NCBI GenBank assembly: GCA_021650915.1
Contig: CP091279.1
Span: 2,010,001-2,042,000, forward strand
Reading direction: 5' to 3'
DNA length: 32,000 bases
Source: Candidatus Brocadia sp.
GTDB taxonomy: Bacteria > Planctomycetota > Brocadiia > Brocadiales > Brocadiaceae
Position numbers and translations under genes: made by a program
The notes under the pieces: model-generated
The model's input: only the letters and a program-made list of their open reading frames with translations
Database searches by the model: none
Told to the model about the DNA's origin: nothing
Part shown: positions 20,676 to 22,370 of the stretch, piece after piece
Numbering within the stretch: position 1 is the stretch's first letter
Layout: the number at the start of each line of letters is the position of its first letter

Positions 20676-20772
20676 GCAACCAATTCTCCGTTGTGAAAGT
20701 GGGAGATTGCTTCGGACAAGACCCTCGCAATGACACCGACTATGCCTCCGATGACATATTGTACGTTGTCAT
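20676..20772 (+). repeat. R-repeat, left half (split by the IS110-family element)
   Basis: These 97 nt are collinear with 27516-27612 (gcaaccaattctccgttgtgaaag.gggagattgcttcgga.aagaccctcgcaatgacac...gtcat). Confidence 0.85.
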
Positions 20773-21127
20773 CTATGAAAAAGCATGTCAAGAAAAAATA
20801 TTATCCCTGTTGACAAAAAAACCAAAGAAATGTTTTCTTGCCATGCGTCCCTTCCGCTTAACTGAGGCTAATCAAGCCATAAAGTCCTGAGTGCATGAAT
20901 GACAAACAGATTATTATCGTTCTCTTTCTATTACCTTAATATGAAATACCTTCGGCAATCGGTTTTCAGTCATCTATCGGTGCTCTTTGCTGAGCATGGT
21001 AATTTTCGATTTAAACGAGGGCGGATCAACCATTGCGTTGGACCTCTTTGGGTCAATGACACGTGGATCTCATCCCTCTCTCAAGAAAACAGGTGCGAAC
21101 CAGCCTTTCATGCCCTCTTGCCCTGTT
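20773..21127 (-). ncRNA. candidate bridge/seek RNA of the IS110-family element (3' non-coding arm)
   Basis: This is 355 nt without a credible ORF, downstream of the recombinase gene. It contains taatatgaaa (20937-46), which matches the opposite IS terminus at 22268-77 in inverted orientation. It also contains ccattgcg (21030-37), identical to the IS/flank junction at 22277-84. A third match, tcaatgac (21053-60), is complementary to 7 of the 8 nt of the target gtcattgc. No structure was computed. Confidence 0.3.
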
Positions 21128-22138
21128 TTACTTGATTAGATTGCCAGTGATCAGTCTGTCATCATATTTCTCACTCTTCCTCCACACGCTTAAAGATATT
21201 GCCGCTATCTTACGACATACTGCATTATAGGCATTGTCATGACCGATGCCTTTCAACCGCAAGGTATCGTAATAGTTCCTTAAACCGCTCTTACCCTTTA
21301 AAACCGAATGTCCTGCCATCTTGTATACGCATTTTAATATCCGATTTCCCCAAATCTTTTCACTCCCATATCCCCTCCCATCACTTATCCTCTTATGCCT
21401 CACCAACCCACAGTAGCTGTAATATTTGTACTTACTGCTAAACCTCTCCGGGTCTATTACCTGTGATACGATCTTCGCCGCCTGGATACTCCCAATGCCG
21501 GGAATGCTCTTGAGATATTTTATCTCTTTAAATCCCTTACTGCATCGAACGATCTCTTTTACATATTCCTGCCTGCCTTCTTCCATCTTCTCTAAAAGCT
21601 GATAGATCTGCGTGCCAATAAATTGAAAGTCTCTTCGCTCTAATCCTTCCAGGAAACTCTCGTCGTTATATAACGCTTCACCTTTGATTTTCTTCCCACT
21701 TTTCCGAAATAAGGATTTGTATCGGTTCTTTAGCCTCACACCCTCTTCAATGAAATCCTGATACCCGGACATTAAACTCCTTAACCTCTCCCTCTTTGAA
21801 CCATCATGATATACCGGTACGAGAAAACCTCCTCGCAAAAGATTCGACAGCTTCCTGGCATCCATCTTGTCCGTCTTTTTCTTCTTGTAATCACCGTTTG
21901 CTACTGGATTGCATACGATCAACTCATCTACTTCTGGTCTCAATATCTCATACAGCCAGTTGCTTAATTCACACTCTTCAAAGGTCAGTTTCTTAACACC
22001 CTCCACTCCCCTCACATACTTCACCAAAAGCCGGCCATTGCTCTCAATCGTAGTGTTGTCTACTTCCCTCCCTCTTTCATCCGTCACATTGAATGTACAT
22101 GTTGACGAATGTGCATCCAATCCTATATACTTTATCAT
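21128..22138 (-). CDS. IS110-family (DEDD) transposase/recombinase
   Basis: 336 aa. The N-terminal DEDD domain shows IGLDAHSST, ECELSNW and KKKTDKMDARKL. The C-terminal Transposase_20 part reads LKSIPGIGSIQAAKIVSQVIDPERFSSKYKYYSYCGL. Confidence 0.92.
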   Translation of the reverse strand: MIKYIGLDAHSSTCTFNVTDERGREVDNTTIESNGRLLVKYVRGVEGVKKLTFEECELSNWLYEILRPEVDELIVCNPVANGDYKKKKTDKMDARKLSNLLRGGFLVPVYHDGSKRERLRSLMSGYQDFIEEGVRLKNRYKSLFRKSGKKIKGEALYNDESFLEGLERRDFQFIGTQIYQLLEKMEEGRQEYVKEIVRCSKGFKEIKYLKSIPGIGSIQAAKIVSQVIDPERFSSKYKYYSYCGLVRHKRISDGRGYGSEKIWGNRILKCVYKMAGHSVLKGKSGLRNYYDTLRLKGIGHDNAYNAVCRKIAAISLSVWRKSEKYDDRLITGNLIK

Positions 22139-22277
22139 ACAGCCTCCTTTCCAAGGTTTAAAGACTTACCACCTTAATTGGTGGTCTAAAGCCTTTATGA
22201 TATTTAATATCACAAAAGGTTATCGCCTATTCAAGGCTTTTTAACCTCCTTGGAAGGACGCTGCTTTTTCATATTAC

Positions 22278-22370
22278 CATTGCGAGTGAAGCGAAGCAAT
22301 TCTTCTCCTATAAATAAACGGTACCTTCTGATAAGAGGTAAATAGAGTTGCGAAAAACTTACAAGAAGAG
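22278..22370 (+). repeat. R-repeat, right half
   Basis: cattgcgagtgaagcgaagcaattcttctcctataaataaacggtaccttctgataagaggtaaatagagttgcgaaaaacttacaagaag is collinear with 27610-27703. Confidence 0.85.

Follow-up and report, generated by a model that had tools for sequence, protein, structure and literature searches.

What determines where a mobile element inserts when all of its copies in a genome occupy the same sequence? This question is raised by a locus in a 32,000-nt stretch of DNA (hereafter the window) from an anammox Brocadiaceae bacterium, whose genome was analyzed as a single 4.05-Mb contig; coordinates refer to the window unless marked as genome positions. At this locus, a copy of a repeat designated R is interrupted by a 1505-bp insertion sequence (IS) that carries a gene for a DEDD-type recombinase, and an intact copy of R lies in the same window. 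The element is very probably an active IS110-family insertion sequence with the layout of the IS1111 group, whose site is chosen by base pairing between RNA and DNA. It is a fresh and clean example of the mechanism described in 2024, and not a new type of system. The element and its site comprise the following features.

20654-20772, plus strand: left portion of the split R, including the 5' arm tcgcaatgac (20725-20734)
20773-22277, minus strand: insertion sequence of 1505 bp, bounded by comparison with the empty site, with 11 copies having identical ends (20772-22277 if the exchanged core is the dinucleotide TG)
22278-22380, plus strand: right part of the interrupted R
27494-27728, plus strand: intact R, the empty site, with two potential targets, tcgcaatgac (27565-27574) and gtcattgcga (27608-27617)
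20770-20772, minus strand: core copy at the right-end junction, CAT on the plus strand and ATG in element orientation, single in the empty site
22278-22280, minus strand: core copy at the left-end junction, a junction sequence constant in the genomic copies
22139-22277, minus strand: left end, a 5' non-coding arm of 139 nt with the terminal extension GTAA, the subterminal inverted repeat, TAATAT and a second repeat half, GCGTCCTTCC
20773-21127, minus strand: right end, a 3' non-coding arm of 355 nt with the putative guide RNA
20774-20785, no strand assigned: right-end subterminal inverted repeat, TATGAAAAAGCA on the plus strand, 1 base from the end
22261-22272, no strand assigned: left-end subterminal inverted repeat, TGCTTTTTCATA on the plus strand, 4 bases from the end
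21128-22138, minus strand: recombinase gene encoding 336 aa, with a DEDD RuvC-like N-domain, a coiled coil, a Tnp C-domain and the catalytic Ser252

The ends were defined by a three-way alignment, in which 20676-20772 plus 22278-22370 were collinear with 27516-27703. An earlier note on this DNA had described a 1505-bp insert splitting R at 20772/22278, with the filled and the empty site in one window, and the alignment bore this out; the intact copy, which the note had confined to 27516-27703, proved to be longer, extending over about 27494-27728. The triplet cat is present once in the empty copy, which reads gtgcgtcgtcattgcgaacgaagc across the site (short form gtcgtcattgcgaac), and at both junctions of the filled copy, gttgtcat-(1505 bp)-cattgcgagt. 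On the plus strand, the junction at 20772/20773 reads gtacgttgtcat/ctatgaaaaagcatg and that at 22277/22278 reads gctttttcatattac/cattgcgagtgaagc. The insertion splits gtcat/tgcga (20768-20772 and 22281-22285), the 3' arm of a 10-bp inverted pair found as previously described, and both arms are portions of a more extended, imperfect palindrome. Elements of the IS1111 group are distinguished by subterminal inverted repeats of 7-17 bp with terminal extensions (PMC11208160) and by a longer non-coding region downstream of the gene (PMC11187229). Here, the subterminal inverted repeats are 12 bp long, the left end carries a terminal extension of 4 nt and the right end one of 1-2 nt, and the arm 3' of the gene has 355 nt versus 139 nt on the 5' side, in agreement with the IS1111 layout proposed in the earlier note.

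A BLAST search of the genome retrieved ten uninterrupted copies of the element (99.1-100% identity) and one copy split by another element. Site-specific insertion with the core at both junctions, which characterizes the IS110 family, was observed for 11 of 11 copies at a single site: the junction context gtcat/IS/cattgcgag is common to all of them, and no copy was found outside the gtcat/tgcga context noted before. R is oriented as in the window for six copies and reversed for five, indicating that both arms of the palindrome are used; insertion in either arm occurs because the 10-bp target CGCAATGACA sits in both. The orientation of the IS relative to the target 11-mer is constant in all copies, and the target in element orientation is CTCGCA-ATG-ACA. 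For the copy at genome 48519-50023, the partner arm was absent from the 60 nt of loop-side flank that were read.

Two copies differ from the others in their integrity. The copy at genome 597386-598890 is otherwise a full-length IS in which the recombinase frame is shortened to 245 aa. At genome 3813067-3814913, a 1847-bp element with the ends TGTTTGAACGG and CGTTCAGACAC splits one IS copy; this element has at least 45 genomic copies with about 99.8% identity, making the genome very rich in insertion sequences.

The R family comprises 288 nhmmer matches, about 110 of which are full length (~221 bp) and about 106 of which consist only of a hairpin core of ~100 bp; in the empty R, this core folds at -21.3 kcal/mol (z = -4.4). 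The 10-mer TCGCAATGAC occurs 263 times in the genome versus about 7 times expected, and the unoccupied sites include 294 of CGCAATGAC and 244 of CTCGCAATGACA. R was present in 17 of 18 searched genomes of the same family, whereas only 6 of 15 same-genus genomes had a DNA match to the IS, most of these matches being partial. The near identity of the copies and the patchy distribution of the element fit a recent burst. Guide complementarity past ACA was considered as a bias on site choice and rejected, as the 11 occupied sites (A in 6, C in 3, G in 2) resembled the empty-site background. A full-text literature search with the target motif gave only unrelated primers.

The earlier note did not include a guide RNA. 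Sequence matches in the 3' arm support such an RNA (a bridge RNA or seekRNA), which would give the reason for the site specificity. Its predicted parts are as follows.

21017-21078, minus strand: target-binding module, an outer stem and an inner hairpin around an internal loop, assigned by fold and pairing
21056-21062, minus strand: 5'-side target guide GUGUCAU, complementary to ATG+ACAC (core and right target)
21031-21037, minus strand: 3'-side target guide CGCAAUG, with the sequence of the left target CGCA followed by the core ATG
20962-21016, minus strand: donor-binding module with the outer stem GUUU/AAAC, the inner hairpin GCUC/GAGC and an internal loop
20996-21003, minus strand: 5'-side donor guide AUUACCAU (DNA ATTACCAT), complementary to ATG+GTAAT (core and start of the left end)
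20971-20977, minus strand: 3'-side donor guide AUAGAUG, with the sequence of the terminal ATAG of the right end followed by the core

The 355-nt arm contains four guide matches of 6-8 nt; all four motifs together were found in none of 200,000 shuffles of the arm. The fold places the two guides of each pair on opposite sides of an internal loop closed by the outer stem and the inner hairpin, as in the loops of bridge RNAs, and GTGTCAT and CGCAATG are spaced 18 nt apart in element orientation. The guide that pairs with the top strand lies 5' of the guide that pairs with the bottom strand. This top-strand-first order has been reported for seekRNAs of the IS1111 type and is the reverse of that in the IS110 type (PMC11187229), and the RNA of IS1111 elements is located in the right end (PMC11208160). 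The guides that pair with the bottom strand run past the core into the non-cognate partner: CGCAAUG-GU corresponds to the left junction and AUAGAUG-AC to the right junction, the two bases AC after AUAGAUG matching the right target. The minimum-free-energy fold contains a helix between AUUACC of the donor guide and GGUAAU further downstream, a pairing that is not clearly conserved.

To compare the element with its relatives, we used 24 loci with 52-93% protein identity from a scan of one genome per species, together with two metagenome contigs. The relatives come from Brocadia, other Planctomycetota, Omnitrophota, Elusimicrobiota, Firestonebacteria, Nitrospinota and one metagenome-assembled genome labelled Nanoarchaeota. 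The scaffold of the guide RNA is conserved among them. In an alignment of 17 sequences, helices 1 and 2 were 92-100% paired, with nine pairs changed on both sides, and helices 3 and 4 were 96-97% paired, with two such pairs in the outer stem. Across the four defined helices, 95% of cells were paired versus 38-49% with slid partners, and the 11 double-sided pair changes were reached in none of 500 shuffles. An extension of the target-loop stem, UUGAG/UUUAA, was rejected since it is broken in two relatives (L011 and L014); GUUU/AAAC was preferred for its compensatory changes.

The guides change together with the flanking DNA. The 3'-side target guide equals the left flank of its own element: CGCAATG in the reference, AATAAGATG in L006, GAGGATG in L008, TAGCCTG in L011, GTCTGATG in L014 and CAGGATG in L031, giving six left-flank specificities in all; on this side, guides match their own flank over 7-9 nt and foreign ones over 2-4 nt. 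Similarly, the 5'-side target guide is complementary to the own right flank, with ATGATTA in L006, ATGAAAAC in L011, ATGAGCATA in L014 and ATGACG in L010, L018 and L021, and five right-flank specificities match their own flank. Counted outward from the core, guide and flank of the same element match over 6-9 nt versus 2-5 nt between different elements; L019 alone departs from this pattern, with a match of only 4 nt between its guide and its own right flank. This covariation is a strong argument against recognition by the protein alone, and it is the same kind of evidence that established the mechanism in the literature. In L006, the bases after AUAGAUG read AU, like its own right flank. By analogy, these non-cognate bases resemble the handshake guides of IS621 (PMC11208158), an inference drawn at nearly invariant positions.

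The relatives L005, L009, L013, L016, L018 and L021 are also found at (C/T)TCGCAATG/.../ATGAC, beside GATTGCTTCG motifs. The hosts of relatives at (C/T)TCGCAATG sites belong to Omnitrophota, Firestonebacteria and other Planctomycetota, and the same short palindromic module therefore serves as a landing site across phyla.

The left and right subterminal inverted repeats covary in L011, L014 and L013. The extreme ends are almost invariant in the clade, with GTAA(T/C/A)ATGAAAA on the left and CTTGACATGCTTTTTCATAG on the right. In the 5' strand of the donor loop, AUUAC is conserved in most relatives (GUCAU in L031). L011 bears on the length of the core: its left junction is CCTG/GTAAT, its right junction is CATAG/ATGAAAAC, and its guide agrees with the left flank (CCUGG). 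Because the junction triplets differ in this relative (CTG on the left and ATG on the right), the sequence points to an exchanged core of only two bases, TG (CA on the plus strand), with the base before it being part of the left target or of the right end. The earlier proposal that CAT at both junctions is a shared core stood, but its three-base extent may have to be reduced to TG. Both the TG and the ATG reading are compatible with the copies of the analyzed genome itself.

The recombinase gene is the only long frame of the insert. Its product matched the Pfam models DEDD_Tnp_IS110 (PF01548) with 43 bits (cut-off 29) and Transposase_20 (PF02371) with 41 bits (cut-off 21.3), confirming that the gene encodes a DEDD recombinase of the IS110 family, as the earlier note had it. 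A structure model built from 15 relatives, with a predicted local distance difference test (pLDDT) score of 82, best matched 8wt9, 8wt6 and 9t56, which are cryo-electron microscopy structures of IS621/ISCro4 recombinase with bridge RNA, over the full length (E about 1e-13, template modeling score about 0.5); for the complexes of IS621 recombinase with bridge RNA, the E-value was 3e-13. In a profile search, KTDxxDA aligned with the D102/D105 segment of IS621 (D90/D93 in the present protein) and S252 with the serine of the IS621 SG motif. Residues D8, E54/E55, D90, D93 and S252 are invariant or nearly so in the 15 relatives; S252 is present in 10 of 10 uninterrupted copies, and the 336-aa frame is intact in 9 of 10. 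The C-terminal motif GLVRHKRISDG keeps the Gly-Leu, the spacing and the Ser of the IS1111 consensus GL-P----S(t)G, with Pro changed to Arg. All copies in this genome have Asp next after the serine, a position taken by Gly, Ala or Asp across the clade. The nearest genes in a tblastn search of plasmids were labelled only 'IS110 family' and shared at most 26% identity, and by sequence the recombinase lineage is divergent. Placement of the recombinase in a named subgroup by way of annotated plasmids was tried and discarded, since it yielded only 'IS110 family' matches at about 26% identity.

In the mechanism that we propose, the DEDD/Ser recombinase would act together with a guide RNA of roughly 125 nt with two internal loops, encoded behind the gene. 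In the target loop, GUGUCAU would pair with the top strand (ATG-ACAC) and CGCAAUG with the bottom strand (CGCA-ATG); the donor loop would likewise read the joined element ends (CATAG-ATG-GTAAT), and the circle junction would read TTTTTCATAG-ATG-GTAATATG. Strand exchange would take place at the shared core (TG or ATG), which would leave the core at both junctions and produce no classical duplication. If the element were excised as a circle, TTGACA from the right end would come to lie 17 nt from TAATAT in the left end, creating a strong promoter for the recombinase.

Could the recombinase instead recognize the hairpin by itself, through its shape or through protein-DNA contacts, with the matches in the 3' arm being incidental? 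Recognition of this kind was once assumed for elements targeting repetitive extragenic palindromic (REP) sequences, and the target does lie within a strong hairpin with 10 of 11 insertions in the paired arms. However, relatives that insert at sequences unrelated to the R hairpin show guides and flanks varying in concert, the 60 nt of loop-side flank read for the copy at genome 48519-50023 contain no partner arm, and the recombinase has the fold of the RNA-guided IS621, so that recognition by protein alone is hardly credible. Equally, the CAT at both junctions might be an ordinary 3-bp target-site duplication left by the staggered cuts of a cut-and-paste transposase, and the junctions alone cannot separate a flanking 3-bp direct repeat from a duplication. 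The same triplet is nevertheless written into all four guide strands, the L011 junction triplets CTG and ATG are unlike a duplication, and a DEDD/Ser recombinase of the IS621 fold belongs to a class that exchanges strands at a core (PMC11208158); a duplication is the least plausible of the explanations considered here.

The remaining alternative concerns activity rather than mechanism: the element might be an immobile, decayed relic whose shared context arose by duplication of blocks containing both the repeat and the element. One copy split by another IS, one copy with a truncated frame and the failure to find a circle junction would accord with decay. The copies are nonetheless 99-100% identical and 9 of the 10 uninterrupted ones have the full frame; they reside in different R subfamilies, in both orientations and with different outer flanks; and the occurrence of the IS in 6 of 15 same-genus genomes, mostly as partial matches, against that of R in 17 of 18 family genomes fits a recent burst. 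An immobile relic is accordingly very improbable, if somewhat less so than the other two explanations.

Several observations weigh against an active, RNA-guided IS1111-type element. Two pattern scans of metagenome contigs found neither the circle junction (right end-core-left end) nor the aberrant junction, and neither a circle junction nor a tandem copy was found in the own genome. (Two own-genome matches to CATAGATGGTAA were dismissed as chance matches with no IS context.) An Rfam scan of the whole window returned no family at the gathering score, and production of the guide RNA and its binding by the recombinase are presumed from the family. The evidence for the donor loop is a sequence match of 7-8 nt and a parallel architecture, and the bases of its 5' strand that would be complementary to the core vary in the relatives (CAU, UAU, GCU, ACU and AAU). 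The recombinase matched NF033542, the NCBIfam model for IS110 family RNA-guided transposases, over its full length with 130.1 bits (E=1e-37), which is below the naming cut-off of 140 bits, and by this comparison it is a divergent IS110-family member just under the threshold. Finally, placement in the IS1111 subgroup is drawn from the architecture of the element and not from a tree.

The RNA-guided reading can be set against known systems. Like the IS1111 seekRNA elements ISEc11, ISPa11, ISKpn4 and ISPst6 (Siddiquee et al. 2024, PMC11187229), the element encodes a DEDD transposase of 330-350 aa (336 here), has subterminal repeats with short extensions and a long non-coding region 3' of the gene, is predicted to specify an RNA in which the top-strand segment precedes the bottom-strand segment and overlaps it at the crossover, and targets repeated palindromes (REP elements in the case of ISPa11). 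In contrast to these elements, its protein is only very distantly related (no more than 26% identity with IS110-family members on plasmids) and has the motif GLVRHKRISDG, and its target is CGCA-ATG-ACA in a ~221-bp Brocadiaceae repeat.

With IS621 and ISCro4 (Durrant et al. 2024, PMC11208160; Hiraizumi et al. 2024, PMC11208158) the element shares the protein fold and catalytic residues, a predicted RNA with a target and a donor loop that each read both strands around a short core, core-adjacent bases that match the non-cognate partner as in handshake guides (AUG-GU and AUG-AC here), and a promoter that would be rebuilt at the circle junction. Unlike in those systems, the RNA lies 3' rather than 5' of the gene, the order of guides within each loop is reversed, the subterminal repeats are 12 bp instead of 2-3 bp, the core is TG or ATG instead of CT, and the handshake-like bases are on the guides that pair with the bottom strand. 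ISPpu9 and ISPpu10 of Pseudomonas putida (PMC12288879) are likewise IS110-family elements that reside in repetitive extragenic palindromes with several copies per genome, and ISPpu10 has a hybrid promoter at its circle junction. Unlike for these elements, solo copies of the RNA module were not found in this genome by BLAST, and the recombinase is unrelated at the sequence level.

To a specialist the element is unsurprising, and it leaves the known mechanism unchanged. What the locus provides is an anammox example of a divergent IS1111-type element whose ends, core, target and empty site are defined to the base and whose guide RNA is predicted, and its relatives span several little-studied phyla. 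Exact ends help annotation, because such elements lack terminal repeats and their ends are often misplaced. The six specificities on one scaffold form a natural set of guides and targets that could inform the rules for programmable bridge recombinases.

The non-coding arms also contain candidate expression signals and additional repeats.

20786-20791, minus strand: TTGACA, an outward-facing -35-like box in the right end
22271-22276, minus strand: TAATAT, a -10-like box in the left end
21089-21126, minus strand: conserved hairpin with a trailing UUUUCUU, immediately behind the stop codon
22243-22260 and 20820-20860, minus strand: extra inverted repeats, GCGTCCTTCC and the internal right-arm GGAAGGGACGCATGGCAAG (element positions about 18-35 and 1418-1458)

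Joining the ends would produce TTGACA-17 nt-TAATAT, and relatives belonging to several phyla retain both hexamers at this spacing. Promoters at circle junctions are known in the IS110 family (PMC12288879), and by analogy we infer a circular intermediate with an active junction promoter. After integration, the sequence across the core and the left end is TGGTAATAT, which has the shape of an extended -10 box, and in insertions of the type seen in the window TTGCTT of the repeat lies 17 nt upstream of the TGGTAATAT -10 shape. The hairpin after the stop codon could be a terminator, an attenuator or a processing signal ahead of the guide RNA. The extra inverted repeats covary in the relatives, the left-end GCGTCCTTCC with the right-arm GGAAGGGACGC, and the right-arm GCATGGCAAG with the terminal CTTGACATGC.

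Three scars of the right end were observed at genome positions 1161863 (minus strand), 2273795 (plus strand) and 2173012 (plus strand), each consisting of xTGAC, the right-end terminal 14 nt (with the sequence ATGCTTTTTCATAG or a variant of it) and ATGAC. They look as if the sequence from the left junction through an internal TTG/ACATGC had been deleted. The second scar (2273795) lies at a locus that is occupied by a full copy in another genome (L005): its flank and the right flank of that copy are homologous. The scars might record a second site-specific reaction of the recombinase, in which the element's own -35 box TTGACA serves as a pseudo-target resembling ATGACA, a reading that we regard as doubtful. 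Such scars might arise by excision from the left junction to the internal TTGACA site, or by insertion of a second copy at TTGACA followed by joint excision. The alternative circles that ISPpu9 forms from internal sites (PMC12288879) are a possible parallel to these right-end footprints. If the reading were true, natural genomes would keep a readable record of off-pathway bridge recombination, and the promoter box of the element would double as a self-target limiting or shaping its spread.

Some further observations concern R and its surroundings. The last ~42 nt of R (27686-27728) also stand alone, with 90-98% identity, in many genomes of the genus, and in the window the R tail ends about 30 nt ahead of a 604-aa frame (27762-29576); the 3' tail of R may be a promoter or leader module. 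The interrupted R copy is adjoined by a second palindromic repeat family at 22425-22495, composed of aggggcgaagcatttgc, about 36 nt and gcaaatgcttcgcccct; the genome has about 60 occurrences of each 16-mer arm, and BLAST gave 135 matches. At 0.6 kb upstream of the interrupted R, a 610-aa frame (18213-20045, plus strand) matched an IS1634-family transposase model with 284 bits (cut-off 100).

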